A stretch of DNA of 62,612 nucleotides, counting the filler, from Candidatus Rokuibacteriota bacterium (GTDB lineage: Bacteria > JAUVQV01 > DATDCY01): the NCBI GenBank assembly GCA_031406795.1. It is 4 parts of 4 records of this genome, joined end to end, with 100 filler letters (N's around TTAATTAATTAA, not from the genome) between each part and the next. Parts side by side here need not be neighbours in the genome. Positions count along the whole stretch, not along the records: positions 18,815 to 37,983 come from JANOHV010000055.1; 3 more parts are not named here. One strand, given 5' to 3'. The notes beneath the pieces are model-generated. The model did no database searches. It saw nothing but the letters and a program-made list of their open reading frames with translations, and was not told where the DNA came from. Shown piece by piece: positions 18,979 through 37,983 of this stretch (within the stretch, counting starts at the first letter, position 1; every line of letters starts with the position of its first letter). Position numbers and translations under genes: made by a program.

Positions 18979-19096
18979 ACAGCAACGCAACCTCTCGCTG
19001 GAGGAGGCCGAGGTCCAGGCGCCTTTTCCGGAGGTGGTCGCCGATGGTCACAAGTGACGTAGGATATGGAATTGACAACGGCTTCTTTGCTTTCAA
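18979..19096 (-). pseudogene. XRE-HTH gene remnant (junction A)
   Basis: Translates LKAKKPLSIPYPTSLVTIGDHLRKRRLDLGLLQREVA, homologous to 36498-36944. Confidence 0.85.
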
Positions 19097-19098
19097 TG

Positions 19099-19194
19099 CG
19101 CACGATCGCGGACCTTGCGGGCGAGTCGAAGATTGGACTCGCTCACATCGCAGAGGCGATCCAGTATCGGGGGCGATCGCAGATCATCGATTAG
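19099..19194 (+). pseudogene. comM: comM/yifB extreme 3' fragment (junction A)
   Basis: RTIADLAGESKIGLAHIAEAIQYR. Confidence 0.85.
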
Positions 19195-19381
19195 CCCGCG
19201 CACGCCACGAGTCCTGACAATTCCTGTGACCTGGGGGGGGGGTCCAGGGACCCATCAGTGCACCGAGGCCCGCCGCTGACCGCGGTCAGGGAGGAGATCC
19301 CGCAGCTTGCTCGCCTCGGCGACGGCGAACGGCCGCGATAGCTCGGGTACAGAGGGAATCATCGTGTGCTATAGTCTGGGC

Positions 19382-19678
19382 ATGGCTGCGTTCAGCGTGT
19401 CGCAGGAAGAAGTCGGTGATTTTTGTCGCAGGAACCACATCAAGAGGCTCGCCTTTTTCGGTTCCGTGCTGCGGGACGATTTCAGGCCTGACAGCGACCT
19501 CGATGTGATCGTTGAATTCGAGCCGGGGCACGTCCCCGGACTCCGCTATTTCGCCATGGAGCGGGAGCTGTCCGAGATCCTCGGCCGCAAGGTCGACCTG
19601 AACACTCCTGGAACCCTGAGCAAGTACTTCCGCGACCGGGTACTCGCCGAGGCCGAGCCGCAGTATGTCGCACCGTGA
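19382..19678 (+). CDS. Minimal nucleotidyltransferase (MntA-type antitoxin)
   Basis: [22 protein letters not shown]; overlaps the HEPN gene. Confidence 0.9.
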
Positions 19679-20012
19679 CCCCGGCGTTTCCCTTCGCCAC
19701 ATGCTCGACCATGCGCGGGAGGCGGTCGAGATGGCCCGGGGGAAATCCCGTGCCGACCTGGACACCGACCGGAAGCTCAATCTGTCGCTGGTAAGGCTCC
19801 TCGAGGTTGTCGGCGAAGCCGCCGGCAGGGTGCCGAAGCCTGAGCAGGACAGGTACCCGGCAATCCCATGGACGGAGATCATCAGCCTCCGGAACCGTCT
19901 CATACACGGATACGATCAGGTCGATTTCGACATCCTGTGGACGATCGTCACCGAGGATCTGCCACCGCTCATCGGCATTCTGGGAACGATCCTGCCCACC
20001 ACCGAGGTGTGA
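19665..20012 (+). CDS. HEPN/DUF86 (HepT-type) RNase toxin
   Basis: [16 protein letters not shown] (Rx4H). Confidence 0.9.
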
Positions 20013-20029
20013 CCACGCCGCAACCCCGC

Positions 20030-20425
20030 GAAGATCCTCGCGGGCTTGATGTTCCCTTTCTCCCTTTCCCCACATCCCCAACGTCCCCGGATCCACCCTC
20101 AGGCGCTGGGTCATGGCCTCTTGGCTTAGCCCGAGGTACCTCCGAATCCAAGTCAGGCGCTCCCCGGGCGTCCAGTCCGGGTCATAGGGGCAGTAGCCGA
20201 GAAATCCGACGATCTTCGGCAGAAAAGGGAAGGCCGGGCGACACGATTTGCCTCCCAGAGGTATACGGAATCCTTCATAGCGCCGATCCTATCCGCAACC
20301 TCGCGCTGGAGTAAGCCTAGGTCAAGCCGCTTCTTTCGCAGATGGTCGCCAATGGTCTTCAGTTCCGTAGGATATCGAATTGGCAAGGATTTCTTTGCTT
20401 TCAGAGTGAAATGGCAAAAAGGCAG
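20030..20425 (-). pseudogene. Tandem XRE-HTH gene, frameshifted (junction B); boundaries approximate
   Basis: [32 protein letters not shown], then a frame change to PGERLTWIRRYLGLSQEAM..VDPGTL. Confidence 0.8.
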
Positions 20426-20433
20426 CGCGACGG

Positions 20434-20903
20434 TGCAAGTGTGGATTCCGAGGGGATCGCCTGCGCGCCTGCCGCTGCAGTCCGCACGACGTGGACGCGT
20501 ACCGTTCGCGGATTTCCGGACCGCTGCTCGACCGCATCGACCTGCACGTGGAGGTGCCGGCGCTGGCATAGGAAGAAATCGCATCGGCGCCATGGGAGAG
20601 GGGACATCTGCGGTAAGAGCGCGGGTCGAGAGCGCGCGGGCCGTGCAGCGCGAGCGCCTCAAGGGAGCGGCAATCTACTGCAACGCGCAGATGGGGGCGC
20701 GCGGAGTCCGGGAGCACTGCCGCCACGACGAAGGCGGCGCACGCTTGCTGGAAGGGGCGATGCGCGCGCTCGGGCTCTCGACGCGCGGTTATGCGCGGGT
20801 GCTGAAGGTGGCGCGGACGATCGCGGATCTGGCGGGTGAGCCAAAGATCGGCATCACCCACGTCGCCGAGTCGATACAGTACCGGATGCTCGATCGGCAG
20901 TAG
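20434..20903 (+). pseudogene. comM: comM/yifB 3' part (junction B) with nonsense and frameshift
   Basis: [29 protein letters not shown] at 20569, 1-bp shift, then KVARTIADL..IQYRMLDRQ. Confidence 0.9.
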
Positions 20904-20998
20904 CTTGAGAATTTCTTGAACCGACAGCAGCTGGCAGCTCTTGACCGATGACCAGTTTACGGACTATATTCGGACGTATCTCAAAGGGAGAGCAATCC

Positions 20999-21274
20999 AT
21001 GAAAATGTCCACTCAGATCAAGCCGATCAGCTACCTCAAGGCGCACGCAGCCGAAATCGTGAGGAATTTTGGCGAGCGGCAGGAGCACCTGGTCATTACC
21101 CAGAACGGCGAAGCCAAAGTTGTGCTGCAGGATATTCATAGCTTCGAGCAGGCACAGGAGACGATGGCGCTTCTGAAGATACTTGCCCTCGGGAACCGCC
21201 AGATTGAGGAGGGCAAGGTCGAGCCCGCCGCGGATGCGATCAGACGCCTACGGAAGCTGCGGGAAGCTCGCTGA
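20999..21274 (+). CDS. Phd/YefM family antitoxin
   Basis: IKPISYLKAHAAEI..VITQNGEAKVV. Confidence 0.9.
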   Translation: MKMSTQIKPISYLKAHAAEIVRNFGERQEHLVITQNGEAKVVLQDIHSFEQAQETMALLKILALGNRQIEEGKVEPAADAIRRLRKLREAR

Positions 21275-21600
21275 TGCAGTTCGCGGTCCTGATAACGCGT
21301 CACGCGGCGCGGGATCTCGACGAGCTGTACGACTACATCGCTCTGCACGATGCACCGGGGAAAGCCGAGCATGTCCTCACACGGATAGAGAAAGCCTTCG
21401 GCAGCTTGTCCGAGTCACCGCAACGCGGGGCCTATCCCCGAGAGCTGCTGGCATTGGGTATTCGGGAGTATCGCGAACTGTTCTTCAAGCCATATCGAAT
21501 CATCTACAGGGTCGTGGGCAGGAACGTCTCCCTTCTCCTGATCGCTGACGGCCGTCGCGATTTCCAGACGCACCTGCAGCGGCGATTGCTCGAGGGATAG
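21274..21600 (+). CDS. RelE/ParE family toxin
   Basis: AARDLDELYDYI..PQRG..YRIIYRV..DGRRD; TGATG coupling. Confidence 0.88.
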   Translation: MQFAVLITRHAARDLDELYDYIALHDAPGKAEHVLTRIEKAFGSLSESPQRGAYPRELLALGIREYRELFFKPYRIIYRVVGRNVSLLLIADGRRDFQTHLQRRLLEG

Positions 21601-21865
21601 GTGTCCCAGTGCGTCGCTTCGCCAGCGGCGCTGAGAAGATGCTTGACTGTCAATGCATTCGCGAATGAGCGGGTGGAATACTCCTTCACGGCGGCATCAG
21701 ATGATGCCTCGTAGGGCCGGAGAGGACGAATCTGACGTCCGGCAGTTCATCCAGGGGCGCTTCGATGCGCTCGAGCTTGTAGCGCTCTAGGTGGAGGGGG
21801 ATCTTCGGGATGATGTTGAAAGTCTGCGTCGAGAAGCGTCGATCATGCACCCGCGCTGTGCGGTC

Positions 21866-23158
21866 TCAATCGTTCCTCGGTGCGTGGGCGACAATCAGCT
21901 TGTCTATCCGGTTGCGGTCCATGTCGACGACCTCGAAGCGCAGCCCCGCAACCTCGAAGCGATCCGCCTCGGCAGGGATGCGCCCGAGGTGGTGCAGCAC
22001 GAAGCCGGCAAGCGTATGAAAGTCCCCTTCCTCTTCGCCGGGGAGCTGTTCGACCCCGACGAGGTCCCTGAAGCGGTCGAGGCTGATTTCTCCATCGACG
22101 AGCCATGATCCGTCACCCCGCGCGACGGCATCGGATGGCGCAGCAACTCCTTCCTCCGGGATTTCGCCAACGATTGCGGAAAGGATGTCGGTGAGGGTGA
22201 CAATCCCCTGGAGACTCCCATACTCGTCGACGACGAGGGCGAACTGCGTTCTCGCGCGTCGAAAGTGCTCCATGATCTGGGTCGTCGTGACGGACTCGGG
22301 CACGACGAGCGGCTGGCGCAGGAACTGCTCGATTGGCAGTGGCTGGCCCGTGAGACCAGGCTTGAGCAAGTCCGTCACGTGCACGACTCCGAGTACGGTC
22401 TCAAGCCCCCCACGGCAGACGATCACCCGGTGGTGCGGCGCTTCCGAGAGTTGCATACGGACCGCCGCCTCCCCGTCCTGGAGGTCTATGAAAAACAGGT
22501 CCTTGCGCGGCGTCATGATCGCTTCGATACGTTGCTCGTCGAGGCGCAGTACGTTCGCGACGAGTTCCTGCTCGCTCTCATGGAATACCCCAGCCTCGGC
22601 GCCTTGCTCCATGAGGACGTCGATTTCTTCGTCTGTGACGGACGATTCGGTGGCGTACCGCACGCGAAAGAGGCGCAGGACCAGGTCGCTGGAAGTCGAG
22701 AAGAGCCATGCCAGTGGGCGCGCGAGCGTCGCGAGGCCGTGCATCGGCGGCGCGACCACGAGCGCGAGTTCCTCGGGGCGCAGCAGACCAAGACGTTTCG
22801 GTACGAGTTCGCCGAGGACCACGGTGATGTAGGTCAACGCCACGACCACAACGGCGAGTGCGATTCCCTCAGCGTAGGGTGCGGCGGCCGGGATGCGCCC
22901 GATACGTTCCGCGAGCGGCCCGACAAATGCCGACTCCCCGACGACACCGCTGAGAATCCCAACGCTCGTGATGCCGACCTGGATGGTCGACAGAAACGTC
23001 GAGGGGGCCTTGTGGAGTGCGAGTGCCCTCCCGGCCCCATGGCGGCCCTCGTCGGAGAGTCGCTGTAGCCGTGCCGCTCGGGAGGACACTACGGCGATCT
23101 CCGACATCGAGAACAGCCCGTTGAGGATGATCAACCCAATCAGGATCGTAAATTCCAC
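21866..23158 (-). CDS. Hemolysin/CNNM (TlyC, CorC-HlyC) family CBS-domain transporter
   Basis: NGLFSMSEIA, GELVPK, IMTPR, VVDEYG, TLAGF. Confidence 0.92.
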   Translation of the reverse strand: MEFTILIGLIILNGLFSMSEIAVVSSRAARLQRLSDEGRHGAGRALALHKAPSTFLSTIQVGITSVGILSGVVGESAFVGPLAERIGRIPAAAPYAEGIALAVVVVALTYITVVLGELVPKRLGLLRPEELALVVAPPMHGLATLARPLAWLFSTSSDLVLRLFRVRYATESSVTDEEIDVLMEQGAEAGVFHESEQELVANVLRLDEQRIEAIMTPRKDLFFIDLQDGEAAVRMQLSEAPHHRVIVCRGGLETVLGVVHVTDLLKPGLTGQPLPIEQFLRQPLVVPESVTTTQIMEHFRRARTQFALVVDEYGSLQGIVTLTDILSAIVGEIPEEGVAAPSDAVARGDGSWLVDGEISLDRFRDLVGVEQLPGEEEGDFHTLAGFVLHHLGRIPAEADRFEVAGLRFEVVDMDRNRIDKLIVAHAPRND

Positions 23159-23246
23159 TCTTCTTCCTCTCGTGTCATGTCGACTCCGGCCTTGTATCGG
23201 CGGGGTTTGCTTCAGGATGGCGTTACGAAGTCGGATTCAAGTGATG

Positions 23247-23307
23247 ATTGTCGTTTCGTGCAGGTTTCTTGTCAATGGCGCGGGAATACACTGTCGCGGG
23301 AATACAC
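23247..23307 (-). promoter_or_regulatory. Sigma70-like promoter with upstream 13-bp direct repeat
   Basis: TTGACA (23275-23270), 17 bp, GACAAT; GTGTATTCCCGCG twice (23279-23291, 23295-23307). Confidence 0.55.
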
Positions 23308-23408
23308 GGGATAGCTTGAGCTTCCTGGGAGTTCGGAAGTCGACCTGCCACCTTTGAGAGTGACCGCCCGCGGCGGCTGAGGAACGGTGCAAATTCAGAG
23401 AGTCGCGC

Positions 23409-24398
23409 TCAACCGAGGAAGAATTGGGCAGTGAAAGCGACGATCAGCGTCCCCGAAAGGCAGATCCCGAGATAGAGCCAGAAGACCCGCGGACGGAAGA
23501 GCGACAGGAAGACCCCCATCGCCGGCAGCGCCGTCACGGGGCCACCGATGAGGAATGCCATCCCGGCGCTCCACGAGTCGTCCTGGCCGAGTCGCTCCAA
23601 CACATTGACCGGGCCGAACAGGATACCGGCGGCGGTGAACTGGTTCACGTGGAGGGGAACGGATGCCAGCGCAATGAGCACGGTCGTGTACCACTTGGTG
23701 CTGCTGAAAACCGCAGCGATCCAATCCGCGGGAATGTAGCGCGCAGCGAGCACCTCAATTACGAGTCCGACGAGGGTGTACTTGCCGACCGCCCAGAGCA
23801 GTTCAACCGCCTTCGCCCAGAAAACAACGAACTTGCTTGGGTACTTACGCCCAATCCGGTTCGACCAGCGGTCCGGGCAGTTGCAGGCGATCCGGTGGTC
23901 GCAGCCTGGGTCGTGGATGTCCCCCTCAGGTATCTTCCCTCGGAAGAGTTCCTCGACGGCGAAACCACGCCGTGCGACAAGATGAGTGACCAGGCCGGCC
24001 CACAATCCCATGAACACTGCCGCGACCAGCTTGGCGTTTGCCCACGTCGGCCCGAGCAGCCCAGCAGTGACCGCGTAACCTTCGATGCTCATCAACGGCG
24101 AAGCCACCAGCAGCGCCATCGCCGGCGCAAGCGGCACGCCGGAGGTGACCAGTGAGACCATGATCGGTAGCACGCCGCAGGCACACAGCGGGCTGATCAC
24201 TGCGATGCCGGTGGCCGCGAGAACTGCCCAGGAGCCGAAATTCGGCAGGCTTTTGCGCAAGCGCACATGAAACTTGAAAGTGCGGATAAAAGCGCCGATC
24301 AGCAAGCCGATGGCCAGGAAGGGTAGGATATGCAGAATCCAGTCCCAGAAGTCCTTGCCGAGGGCGGCAAGTTCGAGCGCCAGAGCCTGTTTGTCCAG
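23409..24398 (-). CDS. DUF318/ArsP-like permease; start uncertain
   Basis: SPLCACGVLP, ASPLM, central Cys/His loop, FLIGGP; frame open upstream of TTG 24305 until TGA at 24419-24417. Confidence 0.8.
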   Translation of the reverse strand: MDKQALALELAALGKDFWDWILHILPFLAIGLLIGAFIRTFKFHVRLRKSLPNFGSWAVLAATGIAVISPLCACGVLPIMVSLVTSGVPLAPAMALLVASPLMSIEGYAVTAGLLGPTWANAKLVAAVFMGLWAGLVTHLVARRGFAVEELFRGKIPEGDIHDPGCDHRIACNCPDRWSNRIGRKYPSKFVVFWAKAVELLWAVGKYTLVGLVIEVLAARYIPADWIAAVFSSTKWYTTVLIALASVPLHVNQFTAAGILFGPVNVLERLGQDDSWSAGMAFLIGGPVTALPAMGVFLSLFRPRVFWLYLGICLSGTLIVAFTAQFFLG

Positions 24399-24566
24399 GC
24401 AGTCAGAAGTACCGAGTCACCGTGAAGATGTTACGCGGCAGTCCACCGGTGTTCCGCGCCGGCTTGGCGGGTCTGGTTCAATCCAGTGGGTGAGCGACGG
24501 GTACATTCATGAAGTATACTGCTGTTTGGTATGAACATTGTACGAGATCTTATTGAGAGAGCCAGA

Positions 24567-24686
24567 ATGAAATCTGCTGCCTATGGCCTGCTTTTGGCCG
24601 TGGCGCTGTTGAGTGCCGATCTTTCAGCTGCCGCAGATATGGAGTCCAGTTCCTTAGTGTGGACGGGCACTGTCCACGTCAGGTAA
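24567..24686 (+). pseudogene. Short ORF, probable N-terminal remnant of a secreted beta-helix protein
   Basis: MKSAAYGLLLAVALLSADLSAAADMESSSLVWTGTVHVR*; VWTGTVHV resembles VWQGRVLV of 98-979. Confidence 0.4.
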
Positions 24687-24693
24687 GAATTCC

Positions 24694-25149
24694 ATGGCAA
24701 TTGACCAGATATCGAATTGTGCGGTGTATGCCGGCTTGTTTGCCGCGGCATTTCTCGCCGCCACGGTGGTGCCTGCCCAATCCGAGGCGATATTGACGGG
24801 GCTGGTGCTCCGGGGCGACCATGCCCTGTGGGCATTGATTGCGGTTGCGAGCCTCGGCAATGTGCTGGGTGCTACCGTGAATTGGGGATTGGGCCGAGGC
24901 TTCGAGCGTTTCCGTGACAAGAAATGGTTTCCGCTGAAGGGGCCCGCGCTCGATCGCACCAGAGGTTGGTACAGCCGCTACGGGCGCTGGTCGTTGCTGC
25001 TCAGCTGGGTACCGTTCATTGGCGATCCGTTGACCGTCGTTGCGGGTATCATGCGCGAAAGCCTTGCTGTATTTCTGGTGTTTGTCACGATCGGGAAGGT
25101 TGGCCGATACCTTGCTCTCGCCGTGACGGTCACGAATATCGCAGGATAG
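24694..25149 (+). CDS. YqaA/DedA (VTT) family membrane protein
   Basis: FLAATVVPAQSE, GNVLG, SWVPFIGDPLT, GKVGRY. Confidence 0.88.
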   Translation: MAIDQISNCAVYAGLFAAAFLAATVVPAQSEAILTGLVLRGDHALWALIAVASLGNVLGATVNWGLGRGFERFRDKKWFPLKGPALDRTRGWYSRYGRWSLLLSWVPFIGDPLTVVAGIMRESLAVFLVFVTIGKVGRYLALAVTVTNIAG

Positions 25150-25183
25150 CTTTCTGAAATGGTAGCGAAAAGGAGAGAACCGC

Positions 25184-26209: not shown

Positions 26210-26263
26210 GCGGGATCTGCCGTCCTGACCGCACGCTGTCGATCTGTCGCGGAGGTCCTGCGC

Positions 26264-27109: not shown

Positions 27110-27263
27110 GGCTCCACCCTCCTCGTTTTTCATGCGTGGCCATTCCTTGCTCTCACGCGCGCTTGCTGCGGCTCATTGGGGCTACTCCCAAGTCAAGCCT
27201 ACCCCCGGCGCCCTTCGCCACGGATTCCATGTCGAAGAGCACCGGGCGGTATTCTTCTTGCTG

Positions 27264-27854: not shown

Positions 27855-27868
27855 GTCTGTCTCCTTGG

Positions 27869-29902: not shown

Positions 29903-29909
29903 GCCGCTC

Positions 29910-30620: not shown

Positions 30621-30685
30621 CCGGGGAGACGAGGAAGCCAACGTCGATGCTTCAACCGGAACCTGCGAGCGAGAGGAGTGAAGAG

Positions 30686-30937
30686 ATGGAGATCGAAGTT
30701 CTGGGCGTCGGCTGCCCGAAGTGCGCGCGGATGTATGAGGCGGTGGTGAACGCCGTGGAACTCGCCGGCCTCGAGGCGCAGGTCCGCAAGGTCTACGACC
30801 TCGATGAGATCATGCGCCGCGGGGTGGTCGCTTTCCCGGCCCTCGTGGTGGACGGCGAGATCCGATCGGTTGGGAAGCTGCTCGAACCGGAAGCCATAGC
30901 GCGCCTGCTGAAGCCACGGGCAGTCTCTGGAGGGTGA
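30686..30937 (+). CDS. Small redox-active disulfide protein (thioredoxin fold)
   Basis: MEIEVLGVGCPKC..FPALVVDG; AGGAG RBS. Confidence 0.88.
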   Translation: MEIEVLGVGCPKCARMYEAVVNAVELAGLEAQVRKVYDLDEIMRRGVVAFPALVVDGEIRSVGKLLEPEAIARLLKPRAVSGG

Positions 30938-31149
30938 GGCACCGGCGCGCATCCTCTTCAGGACTCGCCTCGTCACCCCCGAGGGCGAACGGTCCGCAGC
31001 GTGGCCGCTGCTGCCGCTCCGCGGCGAGGAAGTGGTGCAGTATCTCCGAGAAGCCGGCGTGGACGACATCCGCGAATTCGGTGACTACAACCGTATCGCC
31101 TATGCGCCGGACTCCCCTGCGCTGATCCTCCTGGGCCAGCGAAGATAAA
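30929..31149 (+). pseudogene. C-terminal remnant of a class I SAM methyltransferase-like protein
   Basis: Startless frame ..LREAGVDDIREFGDYNRIAYAPDSPALILLGQRR*. Confidence 0.5.
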
Positions 31150-32352
31150 TCAGGGAGGTGTTCTCGGCACTCCGGCAAGGAAGACCGGCACCGCCAGAAC
31201 GATGAGCCCGGCGAGCGCCAGGAACGCCGTCAGGTAGTCGAATCTCGCGATCAACACCCCTGCCAGGATCGGGCCGGAGGCGTGGCCGACGTCGAAGATC
31301 GTCCCGAAGGTGCCCATCGCGGTACCGAAGTGCCTTTCCTTGCAGAGATCCGCGACAAGAGCCGCGCCGGAGGAGGTGACGAGGGCCTCCCCGAAGCCAA
31401 AGACGGCCGCGGCCAGCAGCAGCGGCCAGAAGCCGCGGACCATCGGGATCGCCGCGAGCGCGAGGGCGCTGACGACGAGCCCGCCGGCGATCAGCGTCCT
31501 GCGCCCATAGCGGTCCGAGCTTCTGCCGATGACCGGCTTGGAGAGGATGGTGGTCACCACCTGCGCGCCCCAGAGCAGCCCGGCCTGGAACTCGTTGAGG
31601 CCGGCGACCATCACGGCGTAGATCGGCAGGAACGCCTCGAGGGCGCCGACCGCCAGATTCGCCATCCCCTCCATGATAGAGGTGATCACCACGCGGCGGT
31701 CGCTCGCGACCTCCCGGATGCCCGAGAAGAAGCGCTGCGAAGCCGCCGCCAGCCCGCCGCTCTCCGTCCGACCCTGACCGTCCTTGAGGAGCCTGAGGAA
31801 GAGCAACAGGGCCACCATACCCGTGACGCCGCTCAGAAGATACGCGAGGTGGAAATCCTGCAGCGCCGGCGCTGTCGATCCCTGGCCGTGGTGCAGGATC
31901 AGACCTCCGAGCGGCGCGCCGAGGAGATTGCCGATGATCGTCACCGACGAGAACCAGGAGAGCATCTCCCCCTTCCGCGCTCCGGCGACATCGGCGACGA
32001 CGGCCATCGAGACCGGGCCATAGACTGCCGTGGCCATGCCGTGCAGGAAGCGGATCAGGACCAGCGGACCGTAGGACGAGACGCCGAGGTAGGCGAACGG
32101 CATGAAAGCAAAGAAGAGCAGGCCGATGAGCATCGTCCGCCGGCGCCCGATGACATCCGAGAGCGCGCCCGCCGGGAGTTTGAAGAAGATCCCGGTGACC
32201 GTCGAGATGCCGACCGCGAATCCGATCGCCTCGGGGCCCGCGCCAAGCGAGAGCGCGAAGAGGGGCAACACGGGGCTGCGAGCGAGAGCGTACGAGAGGC
32301 GCGCGAAGAAGCCGACACAGCAGAGGGCGGCGAACGGGCTCAAAGCGCGCAT
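31150..32352 (-). CDS. MFS transporter
   Basis: GALSDVIGRR and GRSSDRYGRR motif A, about 12 TM segments. Confidence 0.92.
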   Translation of the reverse strand: MRALSPFAALCCVGFFARLSYALARSPVLPLFALSLGAGPEAIGFAVGISTVTGIFFKLPAGALSDVIGRRRTMLIGLLFFAFMPFAYLGVSSYGPLVLIRFLHGMATAVYGPVSMAVVADVAGARKGEMLSWFSSVTIIGNLLGAPLGGLILHHGQGSTAPALQDFHLAYLLSGVTGMVALLLFLRLLKDGQGRTESGGLAAASQRFFSGIREVASDRRVVITSIMEGMANLAVGALEAFLPIYAVMVAGLNEFQAGLLWGAQVVTTILSKPVIGRSSDRYGRRTLIAGGLVVSALALAAIPMVRGFWPLLLAAAVFGFGEALVTSSGAALVADLCKERHFGTAMGTFGTIFDVGHASGPILAGVLIARFDYLTAFLALAGLIVLAVPVFLAGVPRTPP

Positions 32353-32362
32353 AGCGGCTATC

Positions 32363-32917
32363 CTAGTGTTTTGCCGGGGCCTGCCGGTCGAAGTAGATAC
32401 TCTTGCCCGTGATGCTCACCGGGATGCCGAGCACCACTTCGCCCTTGATGAGCCCTAGCGCCCGAGCGGCCGCGCCGACGCGCTGCTGCACGCGGTTATC
32501 GACCGAGAGCAGGCTCGCGGCCTTCGCCGCCGACGCGAGTGCGACGCCGATGTCGATCATGCGCATCACGCAGTGCGGGCCGGTGTAGCCCATCTCCTTC
32601 GCGATCAGAGTGCGGGTCTTCGCGAACTCGGCGCAGGTGGCCGCGCCGCAGGCGCCGCAGTCATAGCCGGCGGTCACCGGCTTCGCGAGGCCGACGAGCA
32701 ACAGTGCTTGCGAGCCTTCGATGTTTCCGGCGTCACGCATCCAGAAGGCCTCGTTGGTGCTGCGCGGGGCGTGATCGCGCATCGAAGCCGCGATTCGCTT
32801 CAGATCCTCCTCCGCCGTCACGACGACGATCTCGAGGAAGTCCTTGCCGCCGGCCTTGGGCGCCGTACGCGCCGCAGCCGCCATGAGTTTTGCCGCCATC
32901 TCCGCAACTTCCTTCAT
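32363..32917 (-). CDS. DUF2148 ferredoxin-like domain protein
   Basis: AARTAPK, CGACGAATC, DIGVALASA, DNRV. Confidence 0.8.
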   Translation of the reverse strand: MKEVAEMAAKLMAAAARTAPKAGGKDFLEIVVVTAEEDLKRIAASMRDHAPRSTNEAFWMRDAGNIEGSQALLLVGLAKPVTAGYDCGACGAATCAEFAKTRTLIAKEMGYTGPHCVMRMIDIGVALASAAKAASLLSVDNRVQQRVGAAARALGLIKGEVVLGIPVSITGKSIYFDRQAPAKH

Positions 32918-32989
32918 GCCGATTCTCCTTGTGTCATCACGGCCATAACCGTTGTCCAGACCCGTCCGCCGCTGCCGGAGCGGCGAGCG

Positions 32990-33544
32990 TCATGAGTTGG
33001 CATTTATCAATCCCTGGATCTCGCGATGGTAGCCGAGATACCGCTCCATCGTTCGCGTGTTCTTTCCGTAATGCGGGTGCCCTCTGAGGATCTCCTCGAA
33101 GTTGCTCTCCGCGTCTTGTTCGTCCTCGAGGGCCACGAGACCCTCCGTGATGATGTCCACCAGTCTGTCCGCGTAGATGACGATCCGCTCCTCCAGACGC
33201 CTGGGCCTGTAGTCAATCTCGGGAAGGCCGAGCTCGCGGGCTTCCTCCAGCGAAAGCCCTCCGTGGAAGTGCTTTTCCATGAGGCCGGTGATTGCCGGGG
33301 GCAGCCCCATCTTCCGGCCGATCTCGGCGCCGAGTTCGCCGTGCTGGAATGAGTGCGTCAGCGCCTTGCCGAGATCGTGGAGGAGCGCACCCCGGCCGAC
33401 CAGTTCGAGGTCCATCTCGCGGCCCGTTCGCCGGGCGATCTGGAGAGCTTTCTCGGCCACCCAGACACAGTGGCGCATATCGTCCTCACTGACCCCGGCC
33501 TTCCAGAGGAGCGCCAGGTCCGTCTGCTGTATCCGATAGTCCAT
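32990..33544 (-). CDS. HD (HDIG) domain metal-dependent phosphohydrolase
   Basis: RHC, LLHDLGK, HGELG, KH, YADR. Confidence 0.85.
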   Translation of the reverse strand: MDYRIQQTDLALLWKAGVSEDDMRHCVWVAEKALQIARRTGREMDLELVGRGALLHDLGKALTHSFQHGELGAEIGRKMGLPPAITGLMEKHFHGGLSLEEARELGLPEIDYRPRRLEERIVIYADRLVDIITEGLVALEDEQDAESNFEEILRGHPHYGKNTRTMERYLGYHREIQGLINANS

Positions 33545-33613
33545 GGTCTTCTTGCTCCTTGTGTCAGGAACCATCTATTGAGGAGGGCTTCTCCGCCATG
33601 CGCGTTCGTCCTC

Positions 33614-34594
33614 TCAGCGGCTTTTTGCGGCGTACAGCATTTCGAAGACCGCCATGCCGCGATCGAGGGCGTCCGCGTCGTCACGGGCGATACGGAGAAT
33701 GCCGGCGAGGATCTCCTCAACTCCGGCCGCTTCGGTAGAATGGTAGCGATCATCCTTGATGTCGAGGTCGTGGACGATCTCGGCCACTTTCGTGAGAGCG
33801 GCATTCTTGATTTCAAATGAGCGCACGAGAACCTCGAAGGTGCACAAGTCCCCGGCGTGGGTGAACTCCGCTCCCGTGACGTCGAACACCACGGTGTCTT
33901 TCCCGGCGGCTGGCGCCTCAGCCTCGTCGATGAACTCGAACATGGCCTCCGGATCGATGAACCTCCGAATCAGCCAGGCCGAGGCCATCCGATCGACGAA
34001 GGGGTTCCTTCTGGTCAGCCAACGCTTCCCTCGATAGGCTTCGACAGATCGTCGTGCGATCCCGGTGTATGCAGCAGAGCCCTTCTCGATTCCTTTCAGT
34101 GCTTGGAGTGCGGAGGAATTCTGAGTGAGGCGTGTCTCAAGCGCCAATCCGGACGCCGCAGAGAAGAAGTCCGTCCGCCGCGCTTCGTCGAAGTCCTTTT
34201 GAATTTTCGCGAGTTGAGATGTGAGTCTCCGGATGCTCGGCATTGCTCCACCCGGGCGCATGCTTTCGATCCGGCGTTCTGCGACGTCGAGCGCTTTCGC
34301 TATCTGCTGGTAGTCGCTTTCCTTTCGACGTCGGAAAAGAGCGACGATTTCGGCGCCCGGGACGGTGTCAATCCGTTCCGCCCGCACGAAGGCGGCCTCC
34401 CCGCCCATGCCGATAATCTCCTGGACGAGCCACTGGAAGAATTCGATATGTTCCTCGTTCATCGGGAGGATGTATGCAGACCCCTTGATTTGCACCGCAC
34501 CCGACTTCACGAGTTTCCTCCAGACCTTGACCCGGTTTCCTACGGGCTTCGTAGGGAGGGAAGAAAAAAAGAGAAGCCATCCCTTGTAACTCAT
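33614..34594 (-). CDS. chrB: ChrB-family chromate resistance protein/regulator
   Basis: RVKVWRKL, WLTRRNPFVDRMASAWLIRRFIDP, FTHAGDLCTFE. Confidence 0.88.
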   Translation of the reverse strand: MSYKGWLLFFSSLPTKPVGNRVKVWRKLVKSGAVQIKGSAYILPMNEEHIEFFQWLVQEIIGMGGEAAFVRAERIDTVPGAEIVALFRRRKESDYQQIAKALDVAERRIESMRPGGAMPSIRRLTSQLAKIQKDFDEARRTDFFSAASGLALETRLTQNSSALQALKGIEKGSAAYTGIARRSVEAYRGKRWLTRRNPFVDRMASAWLIRRFIDPEAMFEFIDEAEAPAAGKDTVVFDVTGAEFTHAGDLCTFEVLVRSFEIKNAALTKVAEIVHDLDIKDDRYHSTEAAGVEEILAGILRIARDDADALDRGMAVFEMLYAAKSR

Positions 34595-34601
34595 GGATGC
34601 A

Positions 34602-34619
34602 ATGTAATAGTAGTTACAT
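34602..34619. promoter_or_regulatory. Palindromic putative operator upstream of chrB
   Basis: ATGTAA-N6-TTACAT, 7 bp before the start codon. Confidence 0.55.
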
Positions 34620-34718
34620 AGATTAGCAATGGAAGAATGAGAAGTGGCGGAATAGAGCGGCATGGTGGATGTTCTTTATCCTCGCGCGACTGGCCCCCCA
34701 CTCAAGCCGCGCCTCAAA

Positions 34719-34922
34719 TCAACTGGAGTTTGAAAAGTCTTGCCAATCGAACCAGGAATTTTCCCTTGGGCTCCCTCGTGCCCCGCTCCCATCTCGCCAG
34801 CGTCCCAGGGTCCACTGGAGGCGCCGGGCCATGGCCTCCTGGCTCAGTCCGATGTACCTCCGAATCCAGGTCAGCCGTTCCCCGGGAGTCCAGTCCGGGT
34901 CGAAAGGGGTTTCTTTGCTTTG
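34719..34922 (-). pseudogene. XRE-HTH remnant with internal deletion (junction C)
   Basis: KAKKP joined directly to PFDPDWTPGERLTWIRRYIGLSQEAM. Confidence 0.8.
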
Positions 34923-34924
34923 AG

Positions 34925-35116
34925 TGCCGCCACGACGAAGGCGGCGCTTGTCTCCTCGAGGGGGCGATGCGCGCGCTCGGCCTCTCAGCGCGTGGCTACG
35001 CCCGAGTGCTCAAAGTCGCCCGTATCATTGCGGATCTGGGGGTGAGCCGAAGATCGGCCTCACTCACATCGCCGAGTCGATCCAGTGTCGGGGAGCAGCC
35101 GCGTCATCTGAACTGA
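34925..35116 (+). pseudogene. comM: comM/yifB 3' fragment (junction C), frameshifted
   Basis: CRHDEGGACLLEGAMRALGLSARGYARVLKVARIIADL..EPKIGLTHIAESIQ. Confidence 0.88.
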
Positions 35117-35126
35117 ACGCAATCGG

Positions 35127-35366
35127 TTACACAGGTGGCTCGTATTTGTCTCCAGGTTCAACCCGCACAGAGATCCTTTTCGGCGAATAGCGACTGGTGG
35201 TGGGGCCGTAATGGTCGGCGAGGTGGCGCAGGAAGTCGGCGAACGCCTCGATCTCATCGTCTTCTTGCTCCTGGTAGACGATTTCCTCGCCCGAGTCCTC
35301 GCCGTCCGACTCGACCCGCAGCACGGCTCCGTTCTGCACCCGACGAATCTCGAATTTCATTGCCAT
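35127..35366 (-). CDS. Small acidic hypothetical protein
   Basis: Compact 79-aa ORF with GGGGGA RBS and natural composition. Confidence 0.6.
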   Translation of the reverse strand: MAMKFEIRRVQNGAVLRVESDGEDSGEEIVYQEQEDDEIEAFADFLRHLADHYGPTTSRYSPKRISVRVEPGDKYEPPV

Positions 35367-35477
35367 GATCCCCCATTGTCAGACGGAGAGGCATACAGCC
35401 ATCAACAAACGGAATTACGTCTGCGGGGAAGAAATGCTACCTCAGCCCTCTTGTGGTTGACAGGCAGCTGAGTCAGT

Positions 35478-35804
35478 TTAATGCATGCGGCGGCGGCCAC
35501 TGGCGCGTGCGGTTCTGCGTTTGAGCCACTTGCCGAACGACTCCTGGCTCTCTCCCGATGGCTTGCCTGACAACAAGCCTTCGATACTGATGTCTTCGTC
35601 GAGGTCTTCCCAGTGGATGCCGAGCCCGCGGCCGATCAGTCGCCATTTGCGGCGCTCCGCCGGAGTGGCGTGGACGAGCCTCGGGAACCACTCGAGGGGT
35701 ACGGTGATCGATCTCCCGTCGCTCAGGTCGACAGTTAGACTTTCACCCGTCGCCTTCACGGAGAGAGCCTTGGGGATCTCGATTTCAATGACCGAAGTAG
35801 CCAT
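35478..35804 (-). CDS. DUF2442 protein (putative antitoxin)
   Basis: LSDGRSITVPLEWFPRL, GIHWEDLDEDISIEGLL. Confidence 0.88.
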   Translation of the reverse strand: MATSVIEIEIPKALSVKATGESLTVDLSDGRSITVPLEWFPRLVHATPAERRKWRLIGRGLGIHWEDLDEDISIEGLLSGKPSGESQESFGKWLKRRTARASGRRRMH

Positions 35805-36021
35805 GCCATGCCTCCAGAAGTTGCGCTTGATTCTCGTCGATCAACCGGTGAATTCTGCCTATTTCGCTGCGGGAAAAGCCTGCGCTGCCCTGCAGACGTA
35901 TCGGATCGAGCCAGAATTTCGCGACCTTGTCGCCGTTCTCGACATGAACGTGCGGCGGTTCGTCTTTATCTCCGGCATAGCAGTAAAATCGAAACGGCCC
36001 CCTCCGCAAGAGTGTCGGCAT
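35785..36021 (-). CDS. DUF4160 protein (putative HicA-like toxin)
   Basis: MPT..FRFY..EPPHVHV..AKFWL. Confidence 0.88.
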   Translation of the reverse strand: MPTLLRRGPFRFYCYAGDKDEPPHVHVENGDKVAKFWLDPIRLQGSAGFSRSEIGRIHRLIDENQAQLLEAWHGYFGH

Positions 36022-36081
36022 TGGGGCAGTCTAACATAAGCAGTCAGGCAGCTCGCTGCCTGAGGTCTGCCGCCTCCGGGT

Positions 36082-36408
36082 TCACAGGAGGACGCCTTCC
36101 TTGCGGGCGTTCCGGTAGAGCGAGAACTCGCCCTCGGCATAAACCGTCGCTTCCACCGGAAGAGCGTGAATCGGGCGCTCGACTTCCAACTGCAGGGGAT
36201 AGAGGGCGTCGATGATGGTTTTCAGGTCTTTCCCTAGCGCCATCGGGCCGCGAAGCAGTACGAGGAGGTCCGCGTCGCTGTCCGAATCGGCTGTGCCGCG
36301 GGCTTCGGATCCGTAGAGAACCACACCCTGCAGGCGGTCGCCGAATGCATCGGCCAAGAGCGCGTGGATGCGTGCTCGGATAGCGGCGTCGACCTTTTGT
36401 ACGGACAT
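36082..36408 (-). CDS. Minimal nucleotidyltransferase; HEPN partner reduced to a 13-codon stub (36044-36085)
   Basis: LYGSEARG..DSDADL, NARKEGV; GTGA overlap into VNPEAADLRQRAA*. Confidence 0.82.
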   Translation of the reverse strand: MSVQKVDAAIRARIHALLADAFGDRLQGVVLYGSEARGTADSDSDADLLVLLRGPMALGKDLKTIIDALYPLQLEVERPIHALPVEATVYAEGEFSLYRNARKEGVLL

Positions 36409-36497
36409 GCGACCACCTCCCAGACGGAACTGGTGAAAGTATAGCAGAACATTTCCTGTGCATTCCTGAATGATCGGACGCATTATGTCCTGTTTTG

Positions 36498-36944
36498 TCA
36501 TGCCGGTGTATTTGAACAGGCGCATTCATCCAAGAATTTAGCCAGCCTCATGAGTAGTCTGCCTTTGGGCTCCCTCTCCCCCCGCTCCCACTTCGCCAGT
36601 GTGCCTGGATCCACCCTGAGCCGCTGAGCCATGGCCTCCTGGCTCAGCCCGAGGTGCCGCCGGATCCAGGTCAGACGTTCCCCGGGCGTCCAGCCCGGGT
36701 CGAAAGGACAGGAGCCAAGAAATTCGATGATCTTCGGCCAGTAGGGGAAAGTCGGATTGGCCTTCCCTCGCTCCCAGATGTAAACGCAACACTCCGTCGC
36801 TCCGATTCGTTGCCCCACCTCCTGTTGGAGGAGTCCCAGCTCAAACCGTCTTTTCCTGAGGTGGTACGCGGTCGACCATAGGCGAGCATGTTGTGGATAT
36901 GGAAGGGGTTTCTTTGCTTTCAGGCTGAAACAGCAGAAAGGCAA
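36498..36944 (-). CDS. Tandem XRE-HTH protein (junction D)
   Basis: Two HTH units: LRKRRFELGLLQQEVG..WERG and RRHLGLSQEAMA..WERGEREP; TTG start. Confidence 0.75.
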   Translation of the reverse strand: MPFCCFSLKAKKPLPYPQHARLWSTAYHLRKRRFELGLLQQEVGQRIGATECCVYIWERGKANPTFPYWPKIIEFLGSCPFDPGWTPGERLTWIRRHLGLSQEAMAQRLRVDPGTLAKWERGEREPKGRLLMRLAKFLDECACSNTPA

Positions 36945-36952
36945 CGCAACGG

Positions 36953-37429
36953 TGCAAGTGCGGATTTAGGGGGGATCGCCTGCGCGCCTGCCGCTGCACG
37001 CCGCACGACGTGGACGAGTACCGTTCGCGAATTTCCGGTCCGCTGCTGGACCGCATCGATCTGCGTGTGGAGGTGCCGGCGCTGGCGTACGAGGAGCTCG
37101 TGACGGCGCCGCTGGGGGAGGGGACGGCGCCCGTGAGAGCGCGGGTCGAAAGTGCGCGTGCCCGGCAGCGAGAGCGCCTGAGGGGAGCGGCGATCTACTG
37201 CAATGCCCAGATGGGGGCGCGCGAGGTCCGCGAGCACTGCCGCCACGACGAAGGCGGCGCCCGCCTGCTCGAGGGGGCGATGCGTGCGCTGGGCCTCTCG
37301 GCGCGCGGATATGCGCGGGTGCTCAAGGTGGCGCGCACCATCGCGGATCTGGCGGGCGAGCCGAAGATCGGCATCACCCACATCGCCGAGTCGATTCAGT
37401 ACCGGGAGCAGCCGCGTCATCTGGGTTGA
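36953..37429 (+). pseudogene. comM: comM/yifB 3' part (junction D), frame intact but lacking the 5' portion
   Basis: [38 protein letters not shown]. Confidence 0.92.
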
Positions 37430-37432
37430 GGG

Positions 37433-37612
37433 GAGACCTTTAAGGGCGAGGCGGGACCAACAGCGTTCCTCGTGAGCCTCAAGGCTGGCGGCCTGGGGCT
37501 GAAACTAAAGCGGCGCAAGCTCGCCCTCTACCGCGCGGTGCTCGCCTGGGAGGCCGCCGGGCGTCGCGGCGCCGCGAGCTCGCGCGAGGACTTCGGCTTC
37601 CTGCTCGAGTGA
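37433..37612 (+). pseudogene. SNF2-type helicase C-terminal remnant
   Basis: AFLVSLKAGGLGLKL joined to RKLALYRAVL..REDFGFLLE*. Confidence 0.6.
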
Positions 37613-37671
37613 GACTGCCCGGACGAGGCCGCCCGGATACATCACAAATCGTCGTGTGCTATAGTTCGGCC

Positions 37672-37968
37672 ATGGCTGCGCTCAGCGTGTCGCAGGAAAA
37701 AGTCAGTGATTTCTGCCGCAGGAACCACATCAGGAAGCTCTCCTTTTTCGGTTCCGTGCTGCGGGACGATTTTGGGCCCGACAGCGACCTAGATGTGATC
37801 GTGGAATTCGAACCGGGGCACGTCCCCGGACTCCGCTACTTCGCCATGGAGCGGGAGCTGTCCGAGATCCTCGGCCGCAAGGTTGACCTGAACACTCCTG
37901 GAACCCTGAGCAAGTACTTCCGCGACCGGGTACTCGCCGAGGCCGAGCCGCAGTATGTCGCACCGTGA
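37672..37968 (+). CDS. Minimal nucleotidyltransferase (second MntA-type copy)
   Basis: Near-identical to 19382-19678. Confidence 0.9.
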   Translation: MAALSVSQEKVSDFCRRNHIRKLSFFGSVLRDDFGPDSDLDVIVEFEPGHVPGLRYFAMERELSEILGRKVDLNTPGTLSKYFRDRVLAEAEPQYVAP

Positions 37969-37983
37969 CCCCGGCGTTTCCCT
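37955..37983 (+). CDS. HEPN/DUF86 toxin, 5' end only (contig break)
   Basis: ATGTCGCACCGTGACCCCGGCGTTTCCCT identical to 19665-19693. Confidence 0.75.

Follow-up and report, generated by a model that had tools for sequence, protein, structure and literature searches.

How did one contig come to hold four copies of the same joint, an XRE-type HTH piece on the minus strand set against the 3' part of comM on the plus strand? The copies lie in a window of 62,612 nucleotides, by which we mean the whole stretch of DNA analysed, and the repeated region is one entire contig of 19,169 nt (18815-37983), delimited by N-run linkers and GC profile. Artificial linkers of the form N44-TTAATTAATTAA-N44 flank it on both sides (18715-18814 and 37984-38083), showing that the window is several contigs strung together and that the stack therefore occupies one complete contig. 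A tblastn search with copy D as query located all four joints where they had been predicted, in the same orientation. The HTH remnants span 18986-19111 (A), 20028-20425 (B), 34732-34910 (C) and 36498-36944 (D) on the minus strand, and the comM 3' parts 19099-19170, 20428-20885, 34925-35110 and 36947-37426, respectively, on the plus strand. DNA identity between the copies is 66-88% (repeat families D3-D10); thus, they are diverged paralogues and not a collapsed duplicate, as the original prediction had held.

Only joint D is intact. Its HTH ORF (36498-36944, minus strand; 148 aa, TTG start, N-terminus LPFC) matches HTH_3 in two stretches (Pfam) and is homologous to the C-terminal part of fusion proteins joining a large serine recombinase (LSR) to an HTH region; its reading frame is the one that would fuse to the LSR body. 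The attR core (36937-36954, plus strand) consists of the exact AAAGGCAACGCA, 4 nt and a central TG at 36953-36954. The comM 3' part (36947-37429, plus strand) runs uninterrupted for 160 codons from the CKCG motif to the stop, covering positions 159-206 of the 207 of Mg_chelatase plus Mg_chelatase_C (Pfam). At joint B, the double-HTH piece (20028-20425, minus strand; tblastn) is a frameshifted pseudogene, the attR core (20418-20435, plus strand) reads AAAGGCAGCGCG, 4 nt and TG at 20434-20435, with two mismatches to the consensus in the P half-site AAAGGCAGCGCG, and the comM 3' part (20428-20903, plus strand), from the CKCG codons to the stop, contains one in-frame stop and one frameshift. Joint A (18986-19194, HTH minus, comM plus), truncated by the contig start, has lost about 410 nt including the P half-site, and HTH residues 2-44 are fused to the last ~30 comM codons. 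At joint C (34732-35116, HTH minus, comM plus) a deletion of about 530 nt across the joint has again removed the P half-site, leaving a second-HTH remnant (34732-34910) and the last ~62 comM codons (34925-35116), frameshifted. Lacking the P half-site, neither A nor C can recombine now. The predicted recurring unit is therefore present four times but sound in one copy only, and with three of four copies decayed the contig is mostly a fossil stack.

Modules on the contig are laid out as a comM 3' end, cargo that usually includes a toxin-antitoxin pair, and an HTH piece with the P half-site. Module A-B carries a toxin-antitoxin pair of MNT (19307-19678) and HepT/HEPN (19665-20012) genes on the plus strand (Pfam NTP_transf_2 and HepT-like). 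Directly 3' of comM copy B lie genes for a Phd/YefM antitoxin (20948-21274) and a ParE toxin (21274-21600), both on the plus strand (Pfam), and then a metal/redox block (21866-34663, no strand assigned; Pfam) comprising CNNM-CorC, ArsP permease, VTT, CDF efflux, tandem Usp and HupE/UreJ genes, a thioredoxin-DsbD-thioredoxin set, and MFS, DUF2148, HD and ChrB genes. Whole genes of this block are missing in relatives from other samples (joints 21681>24494 and 21621>24723). The C-D module encodes DUF2442 (35478-35804), DUF4160 (35785-36021) and an MNT-type nucleotidyltransferase (36082-36525) on the minus strand (Pfam). Behind copy D an MNT gene (37609-37968, plus strand), within or just past which the contig terminates, is 87-89% identical to the one behind A. 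These assignments agree with the cargo foreseen for each module (MNT-HEPN, Phd-RelE with metal/redox genes, DUF4160-DUF2442 with MNT, and MNT). Pfam placed 24 of the 26 contig ORFs scanned in a family and detected no Resolvase, Recombinase, Phage_integrase or transposase among the 26, in line with the claim that the modules are recombinase-free. Searches of the window, tblastn included, found no LSR, attL or comM 5' part, so the anchoring of the stack to comM is not visible here.

The nature of the joints emerged from a comparison set of 79 related loci, 54 of which, from many phyla, contain a total of 59 joints in which the HTH start is no more than 15 nt from comM residue ~355 and on the other strand; at 48 of the 59 the comM piece spans at least 150 aa in a single HSP. 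The insertion point lies directly 5' of the comM codons for the conserved C-x-C-G motif. On the element side of the joint there is a near-invariant half-site followed by TG, and at the opposite element end (attL) an inverted half-site with an LSR gene adjoining. Among 71 comM sites, the strict P arm GGCAAcGCA occurs in 54 and a degenerate one in about six, while nine are intact comM with ATGAAYCCN; TG stands at the exchange point in 69. The HTH N-terminus ALPFC is encoded by the invariant P-arm DNA. Judged from these sequences, the joints are the attR sites of an LSR element family targeting the competence gene comM, bearing out the idea that recombination joints at comM bound the modules, each of which lies between a comM 3' end and an HTH. 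Strand exchange by these elements at the TG dinucleotide of comM is the best explanation of the pattern and one that we hold to be probable. Some P arms have comM-like inner bases (GGCAATGAACCC), which points to gene conversion between sites.

In loci L082, L040, L085 and L081 the gene adjoining attL has Resolvase and Recombinase domains; in L081 it is interrupted by IS21. A single frame running through attP encodes both LSR and HTH in L035 (639 codons) and L008. Recombinase occurs together with HTH_3 in 23 of 25 long database proteins matching the HTH part, and the linker GQ(R/H)N..ALPFC in 18 of 20 fetched proteins. Hence LSR and HTH make up one frame spanning attP when unintegrated, and integration splits the recombinase gene: the LSR body would stay at the comM 5' part (attL) and the HTH piece, with one attP half-site, beside the comM 3' part (attR). 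The small "HTH gene" at each joint is no regulator gene in its own right but the detached C-terminal tail of the recombinase gene. The same observations largely refute a dedicated integron-like platform whose cassette recombinase is the small HTH protein or an unknown host enzyme. Recombinase-free modules, the many genomes without an LSR and purifying selection on the HTH pieces (dN/dS 0.09-0.20) would suit such a platform; however, the HTH piece has two HTH_3 domains only and no catalytic domain (Pfam), it forms part of the LSR frame in every case with an intact attP, the half-sites show the two-fold arrangement of att sites used by LSRs, and the contig has no IntI-type integrase, attI or attC. 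What stands of the integron comparison is the similar stacking outcome; the parts are ordinary LSR att sites.

Stacks with differing cargo also occur in relatives, as anticipated: at least two comM 3' copies are present in 15 of the 79 loci, comM-joint stacks are found in many bacterial phyla, and the sequences behind the comM copies are mostly unrelated to one another. In L006, L011, L043, L068 and L002 the end opposite the HTH start is occupied by full-length comM. No recombinase was detected among the 35 ORFs scanned in five stack loci. Pfam covered 127 of the 301 ORFs right of the HTH in the relatives, the selection excluding ORFs upstream of the HTH, and the remaining ORFs were checked by tblastn with two LSRs. 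In three of the genomes with stacks, Recombinase domains are entirely absent, a finding that fits a departed core and LSR-independent stacking equally well.

Since linkage between modules of the contig rests on short-read metagenome assembly, the four joints might be real yet come from different molecules, single-module loci of several strains having been chained via k-mers of conserved comM 3' sequence. The contig comes from a metagenome and ends in repeats at both termini; its GC content is about 0.60 as against about 0.70 in the neighbouring contigs of the bin. In the best-matching sequencing run, junction B, the C-D interval and D are not bridged by any Logan contig, and the comM pieces have a depth many-fold above that of the cargo. 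Against such a chimera, the unique pieces in that run all have a depth of 8.9-9.8, apart from one at 6.1; a k-mer switch would not produce deletions such as those in A and C; and other assemblies have stacks of two or three joints on whole chromosomes and on contigs of megabase size, such as the 1.46-Mb Rokubacteria contig that carries L002. We consider both chaining across strains and an origin of the joints in different molecules improbable.

For the stacking we favour accretion by an LSR acting in trans, with a probability of about 0.6. The contig would be a stack of right-hand joints (attR) left by the mobile elements of one family, whose free form would carry LSR and C-terminal double-HTH domain in one frame with attP inside it. 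An LSR core would land in intact comM ahead of a module and then excise using the distal attR rather than its own, taking the module and the comM 3' end preceding it; the module's HTH piece would restore a complete LSR-HTH frame to the excised core. The composite would integrate in a new host, and the core would afterwards excise with the proximal attR, leaving behind a chimeric but intact comM together with the module and the comM 3' end displaced in the host. Repeated cycles would make the stack grow, and the present contig would be a stage without the LSR, with D as the one complete joint and with A, B and C as scars in decay. Two genomes have arrangements that would be the intermediates predicted by this model: G004 with the order comM5'-attL-LSR-39 kb-HTH-attR-comM3'-module-HTH-comM3', and G009 with attL and LSR plus four joints on other contigs. 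The large serine recombinase present in relatives would supply the cognate enzyme originally postulated. Several points weigh against accretion. Attachment sites of the attR type are non-canonical partners for a second integration; a pre-existing module is required, and the model gives no first origin of modules; the most intact copy, D, lies furthest from the expected comM 5' position, an order that is not predicted. Also counted against it are the three genomes without Recombinase, decay in G005 (see below), the comM-like P arms, the missing P half-sites of A and C, and the absence of LSR, attL and comM 5' part from the window. Overall, the original observation is confirmed, and its interpretation partly supported.

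Could the stacks be nothing more than successive complete LSR elements, each of which lost its recombinase end by deletion in place, so that the modules were never mobile without an LSR of their own? Plain decay does occur: in G005 the LSR end and attL are deleted with comM unrepaired, in G002 the LSR is interrupted by IS21, and A, B and C of the contig are clearly decaying. However, one integration leaves no attB for another, deletion can neither make extra comM 3' copies nor rebuild an intact comM before the stack, and the exact two ends are kept even in modules of 1.3 kb. This makes decay in place very improbable as the source of the stacks.

Homologous recombination could also stack modules, the LSR having made only the first joint and spread having followed through flanking comM homology, with complete comM to the left of the modules and the displaced 3' piece to their right. 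Possible routes are transformation-type double crossovers, Campbell-type insertion of looped-out circles and unequal crossing-over. A direct comM repeat of about 480 bp flanks each module, three stack genomes are devoid of any Recombinase domain, and the comM-like inner bases of some P arms suggest conversion tracts. Modules with similar cargo lie side by side in L068, the MNT genes behind A and D of the window are 87-89% identical, and salvage of comM by recombination is raised as an idea in the available part of PMC11472951. On the other hand, copies within a stack are often just 79-88% identical in DNA, hence unhomogenised; across phyla, 69 of 71 sites are broken at one and the same dinucleotide; and homologous recombination cannot move modules between phyla, comM ends being just ~50% identical in protein. 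At neighbouring joints of L068, identity is 97% between the two displaced comM ends and 64% between the adjacent HTH pieces, so unequal a divergence that the two parts appear to have had independent histories. We regard stacking by homology as possible but rather unlikely. In favour of LSR accretion, differences between comM 3' copies within stacks are mostly silent (dN/dS 0.01-0.06 in L038, L043, L061, L068 and L073; 0.15 for B versus D of the window). Thus, comM ends in stacks diverged under purifying selection, which implies derivation from different functional alleles.

The closest analogues of the comM stacks are the SCC/pseudo-SCC composites and the ssrA islands. In staphylococci, SCC/SCCmec composites at rlmH (orfX) use large-family serine recombinases and one fixed intragenic site; tandem elements are bounded by site repeats of a few rlmH codons, the target gene stays intact, and ccr-less pseudo-SCC members can be moved by a neighbour's recombinase. 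The large-family serine recombinase, the fixed site in a conserved gene, the tandem elements between site repeats, the recombinase-less members and the preserved target gene are common to the comM stacks. In contrast, comM modules each carry ~160 comM codons, comM is disrupted by complete LSR elements, no small CcrA-like partner recombinase is seen at the stacks, and integration divides a recombinase frame that extends across attP. Accretion of CIME and ICE at the 3' end of fda in Streptococcus thermophilus reportedly gives tandem arrays, the CIME being integrase-less, att-flanked and mobilised in cis by a neighbour's recombinase, in work attributed to Pavlovic et al. 2004. That system differs in its tyrosine integrase, short att repeats and lack of gene-end replacement on the comM-stack scale. 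The SCC-CcrAB analogy has been drawn for the Dehalococcoides ssrA islands too (McMurdie et al. 2011, PMC3146451). According to the available sections of that paper, several islands stand in tandem behind one single-copy gene, a serine recombinase of ~540 aa adjoins attL on the reverse strand, and 15 islands without an integration module are read as cis-mobilisable and moved by accretion. Their repeat is 20 bp of ssrA where the comM modules have a long coding 3' end; they also have a second small recombinase, DsiA, and those sections of PMC3146451 do not describe a split recombinase gene.

Targeting of comM by LSRs is published; stacks and split gene were not found in the literature. Of the predicted site-specific LSRs, 12.4% target homologues of the magnesium chelatase/ComM gene (Durrant et al. 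2022, PMC10083194), and insertions at the orthologous comM position are known in several species (Croucher et al. 2016, PMC4774983). As far as the available portions of these two papers go, the elements share the target gene but are single disrupting insertions, and neither recombinase-free stacks behind a rebuilt comM nor an attP inside the LSR frame is described. Integrons, like comM stacks, show promoter-proximal stacking of recombinase-free cassettes at one site with the enzyme encoded elsewhere, and many toxin-antitoxin cassettes; the comM stacks differ in being without tyrosine IntI, attC hairpin sites and Pc/attI platform, and in that their cassettes have a gene end at one boundary and a fragment of a recombinase gene at the other. 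For the split gene there are parallels in the SSV1-type integrase gene of archaeal viruses, which is split by integration, and in the integration-dependent immunity of mycobacteriophages, where the recombination site lies inside an element gene; both involve a tyrosine integrase. In these two systems and the comM elements alike, attP within a coding frame means that free and integrated forms encode different proteins; at comM, unlike the other two, the enzyme is a serine recombinase that loses its C-terminal double-HTH domain.

Each of the three artificial linkers in the window consists of 44 N, TTAATTAATTAA and another 44 N (18715-18814, 37984-38083 and 56767-56866). The finding is thus confined to exactly one contig, 18815-37983 (19,169 nt), and since the window is made of at least four contigs of a bin, gene order across contigs carries no meaning. 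The left-hand contig ends inside a gene with an FtsK gamma domain (18221-18415, minus strand). The right-hand contig begins inside a gene for SelB, lacking the GTPase start of the protein (38174-39523, plus strand), followed by TusA (39580-39792) and an ORF for a putative NAD-type DNA ligase (40737-42776). The contig of interest has a GC content of about 0.60; that of its neighbours is about 0.70. A GC dip at 56001-57000 marks the place of the third linker.

Searching the window by tblastn with the best preserved unit located the four HTH/comM 3′ units of the original prediction, here called copies A to D in contig order, and no others. Every HTH remnant is on the minus strand and every comM 3′ part on the plus strand, as had been proposed. 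Copy D has a complete HTH gene (36498-36944, minus strand), encoding 148 aa with two HTH_3 stretches, next to a comM 3′ part of 160 codons extending from the C-K-C-G motif to the stop codon (36947-37429, plus strand) and covering Mg_chelatase positions 159-206 of 207 plus Mg_chelatase_C. At the joint, an exact P arm (the element half of an attR site), 4 nt and a TG (36953-36954) make up the attR layout of a large serine recombinase (LSR). Copy B shares this layout, with 2 mismatches; its comM part contains a stop codon and a frameshift, and its HTH is frameshifted too. The layout is gone from the remaining copies: about 530 nt are missing across the joint of copy C and about 410 nt from copy A, which is also cut by the contig start. 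The P half-site and the beginning of the comM piece are lost in both deletions. Their left breaks (A, 19080-19100; C, 34905-34925) are nearly identical, falling just after ..TTTCTTTGCTTT(C/G)A(A/G), which hints at a non-random process.

Pfam analysis of the 26 ORFs of the contig identified no recombinase, integrase or transposase, as anticipated for the modules between the joints. The families recognized in 24 of these ORFs were the toxin-antitoxin pairs and metal/redox genes already listed. Within the window, tblastn detected neither a comM 5′ part nor, with two LSRs as queries, an LSR gene (none was found by Pfam in the 26 ORFs either), and a search for the inverted P′ arm of attL was negative. 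The units have independent origins, with cargo differing from one to the next and flanks unrelated except between A and D, and they are bounded by four direct repeats, in one orientation, of a single att-derived sequence. From its sequence, the contig is best read as a mostly fossil stack of attR joints from a comM-targeting LSR family.

The contig sequence, whole or in parts, is present among the assembled contigs of 20 public runs from 13 studies of sediment and groundwater. None of these contigs, those of the best-holding run included, bridges the junction repeats, as would be expected if the contig were an assembly chimera. Against this explanation, which we consider unlikely, the unique pieces of the contig have an even depth in the best-holding run, 8.9-9.8 with one piece at 6.1. 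Joints between comM copies seen in such contigs (e.g. 20544>37322) were dropped as candidate excision products, since they have short sides and reflect the likeness between copies. Relatives of the cargo block at 21600-28400 found in other samples lack whole genes (CNNM and ArsP are skipped in relatives X4 and X7, the tandem-Usp gene in X7), showing that cargo varies gene by gene.

The HTH protein has 82 database relatives, many of which retain the N-terminus LPFC..LKAKKPL. A scan covering one genome per species gave 391 relatives, of which 79 loci were retained, from Rokubacteria, Planctomycetota, Acidobacteriota, Chloroflexota, Bacteroidota, Verrucomicrobiota, Nitrospirota and other phyla. 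The HTH start lies at most 15 nt from an opposite-strand comM 3′ part in 54 of these loci (59 joints); the comM part always starts at one fixed codon, around residue 355 of a 517-aa ComM, and is unbroken over at least 150 aa in 48 joints. On the element side, nearly all joints read ..GGCAAAAAGGCAACGCA, four bases and TG, followed by the comM codons TGYCCNTGYGG, while intact comM has GCNATGAAYCCN ahead of the same TG. Among 71 sites compared, the P arm was strict in 54 and degenerate in about 6, and 9 were intact comM; the TG was present in 69. As the motif is kept at every codon position and in phyla of 40-70% GC, it must be a DNA site, and the ALPFC peptide exists because invariant joint DNA is translated. 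In a number of loci (L014, L016, L024, L034, L052, L055, L057-L059, L063 and L011:10001), a good P arm and a CA/TG dinucleotide are joined to non-comM sequence. These HTH ends may lie at pseudo-sites in other genes or face comM ends decayed beyond recognition.

A comM 5′ part was found in four loci (L082, L040, L081 and L085), where it is followed by TG and by the inverted motif (TGCGTTGCC.TTTTG.C), forming attL. Beside attL, and pointing towards comM, lies a gene encoding Resolvase and Recombinase domains (505 aa in L082, 563 aa in L040; disrupted by IS21 in L081). This arrangement defines a complete element, comM5′ / attL / LSR ... cargo ... HTH / attR / comM3′. With a further gene of this type in L035, the cognate recombinase that the original prediction called for does occur in relatives. 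As judged from their sequence, the two arms form an imperfect palindrome of the kind typical of an LSR attP, with TG as the likely central dinucleotide. A reading of the inverted terminal motif as a Tn7-type or other transposon end was dropped, the neighbouring gene being an LSR and attP-form loci showing the palindrome. Searching all loci by tblastn with two LSRs detected the family in 12. Of 301 ORFs selected to the right of the HTH, 127, from 27 further loci, were surveyed by Pfam and yielded only IS transposases; because the selection did not extend upstream of the HTH, LSRs of the attP form first came to light in the tblastn search. The target itself is a familiar one: comM is reported as the commonest gene target of site-specific LSRs (Durrant 2022, PMC10083194), insertions at the orthologous comM position are described in several species (Croucher et al. 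2016, PMC4774983), and comM disruption is reported to reduce natural transformation (PMC11472951, PMC4774983).

The identity of the HTH gene became apparent from two loci, L035 and L008, that have no comM joint. In both, the LSR gene lies directly upstream of the HTH with an intact attP between them (GGCAACGCAACCT CA TACC TGCGTTGCC, HTH sense), and LSR and HTH form a single reading frame. The L035 frame has 639 codons; Resolvase occupies 9-151 and Recombinase 175-277, and two HTH_3 stretches are also present. When its HTH part was compared with long proteins, 23 of the 25 matches combined Recombinase and HTH_3. In 18 of 20 fetched proteins, attP is translated into the linker GQ(R/H)N..ALPFC; the remaining two are members of a distant LSR-HTH family typified by locus L012. 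Because one frame runs across attP, integration cuts the recombinase frame, leaving the LSR body at attL, with a few additional codons read from comM antisense, and the double-HTH tail at attR. The HTH of copy D is in the frame that matches an LSR fusion. No published description of such a split LSR-HTH arrangement, or of an attP within an LSR frame, was found in article text (supplements excluded).

These parts are not those of integrons or of Tn7-like islands. The integron-like platform originally proposed does not fit them: there is no IntI, attI or attC, the 26 ORFs offer no Phage_integrase match to the IntI tyrosine integrase, and boundaries consist of a gene end and an LSR half-site rather than of attC. 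The same misfit with the parts found makes an HTH-only recombinase, or any integron-type platform, the least probable of the explanations considered. The Tn7-like AbaR-type island also resides in comM, but its TnsA/B/C-TniQ genes are absent from the 26 ORFs, and an LSR attP palindrome without target duplication contrasts with Tn7-type ends and a 5-bp target duplication.

The relatives bore out the suggestion that junction arrays with differing cargo would be found, since 15 of the 79 loci contain at least two comM 3′ copies with varying cargo. Where the contig reaches far enough (L006, L011, L043 and L068), a full-length comM closes the stack on the side opposite to the HTH start. L002 is arranged likewise, on a 1.46-Mb contig of the Rokubacteria genome with the nearest relative of the window's HTH. 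In the sense of comM, the order is intact comM - cargo - HTH - attR - comM 3′ piece - cargo - HTH - attR - comM 3′ piece. Complete elements break comM, whereas stacks sit behind an intact comM. Scanning 35 ORFs from five stack loci revealed PIN toxins, histidine kinases, secreted beta-helix proteins and an RHS protein with its neighbour, and no recombinase. The Recombinase domain was not detected anywhere in the draft assemblies of three stack-bearing genomes (G006-G008). Querying stack genomes with a single LSR gave one close match, in G009 (71% identity), and a distant one in G010. In G009, four joints are on contigs other than the one that holds attL and the LSR. In G004 the order is comM5′ - attL - LSR - 39 kb with a coupling protein and a relaxase - HTH - attR - complete comM 3′ piece - 4.6 kb - partial HTH - partial comM piece; excision here would restore the LSR-HTH frame. 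Both genomes show an LSR element in front of older joints, and would fit as intermediates if a neighbour's recombinase mobilised the modules, although neither circles nor module swaps were seen. Complete elements do undergo plain decay (G005 and G002); as it is unable to create extra comM ends, it is a very improbable source of the stacks. We found no published description of recombinase-less stacks behind comM; in article text (supplements excluded), comM figured only as a target of LSRs and mobile elements.

Sequence comparisons within stacks bear on where the copies came from. The comM 3′ copies share 79-97% DNA identity, and the sequences behind them are mostly unrelated. For the stack copies of L038, L043, L061, L068 and L073, dN/dS is 0.01-0.06 with dS of 0.8-3.6; between window copies B and D, dN/dS is 0.15 and dS 0.49, even though B is now broken. 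The mostly silent differences indicate that the copies diverged as working gene ends, in different lineages, before being set aside. The HTH pieces are likewise under purifying selection (dN/dS 0.09-0.20). In L068, identity is 97% between two displaced comM ends and 64% between the adjacent HTH pieces; in L001, a comM end 96% identical in protein to that of copy D lies beside an HTH that is only 49% identical. Such unequal divergence implies separate histories for the two halves of the joint, as in a recombination joint. In-place tandem duplication was dropped as the source of copies in most stacks on account of the dN/dS values and the unrelated flanks, and is kept as a contributor in L068 and for window copies A and D. 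The like neighbours in these same two cases, and P arms with comM-like inner bases, also hint at homologous recombination through the 480-bp comM repeats, which could spread or amplify modules among close relatives but cannot yield an exact break point across phyla.

The best-supported mechanism is stacking by an LSR acting in trans, to which we assign a probability of about 0.6. Ordinary LSR reactions would suffice if excision sometimes paired attL with a distal attR. The resulting circle would comprise the LSR core with the proximal attR, then the comM end that follows this attR, and finally the module with its HTH piece, which would complete the LSR frame across the new attP. In a new host, this composite would integrate at comM. 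If the core later left via the proximal attR, comM would be rebuilt from the host 5′ part and the imported 3′ end, and the module would stay behind together with the host's own comM 3′ end. The model accounts for a break point that is fixed, comM ends that are imported, the selection acting on HTH pieces, the stack genomes without LSR and the two intermediates. The origin of the first module, the better preservation of copy D and odd loci such as L025 and those of genome G001 are left unexplained.

More tentatively, and with somewhat less than even odds, the system might perform cassette exchange by serine chemistry. The LSR gene spans its own attP, and LSR-free cassettes keep the tail and a half-site; a core excising with the distal joint would regain the full enzyme, move the cassette along with a functional comM end into a new host, and then leave, so that comM there would be repaired and followed by the cassette. 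The HTH tail and one attP half-site would serve as the docking end of the cassette, and any LSR core landing in comM could pick it up. Whether the DNA is free or integrated would determine which form the enzyme takes and hence the direction of the reaction. The split frame, the most novel and most testable point of this work, suggests a built-in switch between integrating and excising enzyme forms.

The stacks show a second outcome of LSR hits on comM, in which cargo is retained and comM rebuilt. Through this outcome, bacteria of at least a dozen phyla would be able to assemble genes for toxin-antitoxin systems, defence, signalling and metal resistance at a single site, with no recombinase resident there. 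A similar logic of accretion and cis-mobilisation applies to SCC and pseudo-SCC composites and to CIMEs, and several features of SCC/CIME-type arrays are found here: tandem units with att-derived direct repeats, no recombinase and independent origins. The logic is also that of the Dehalococcoides ssrA islands, 15 of which are described as lacking an integration module in an article that itself draws the SCC analogy (PMC3146451).

Some loci depart from the common layout. In L025 (4250-4450), the comM 5′ part overruns the usual exchange point by ten bases, taking in the CPC codons, before it meets the HTH sense strand, with TGCG common to both; the polarity of this joint is wrong for a TG-directed LSR exchange. 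On the chromosome of G001 (L021, L080) an HTH/comM3′ joint lies 112 kb from the comM 5′ part, and on that of G002 (L054, L081) about 2 Mb from it, which indicates large rearrangements between sites or secondary target sites. The HTH end of L080 adjoins non-comM sequence. In G005, a 3.7-kb LSR-less element (L083, 3108-6847) separates a truncated comM 5′ part from a comM 3′ part; its cargo consists of DUF4145, a DprA-like protein and an AbiV-type HEPN protein, so that a second transformation-related gene, of the DprA family, is carried within a comM insert. Finally, the distant LSR family (about 25% identity) of L012 (8405-10441 and 11300-11757), also present in L077, L050, L031, L019 and L060, likewise has a fused double HTH but lacks the LPFC linker. 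In L012, a second copy of the tail begins with ..PMPLVLPQS.., and several loci of this type include comM parts. This family may split its frame at another point.
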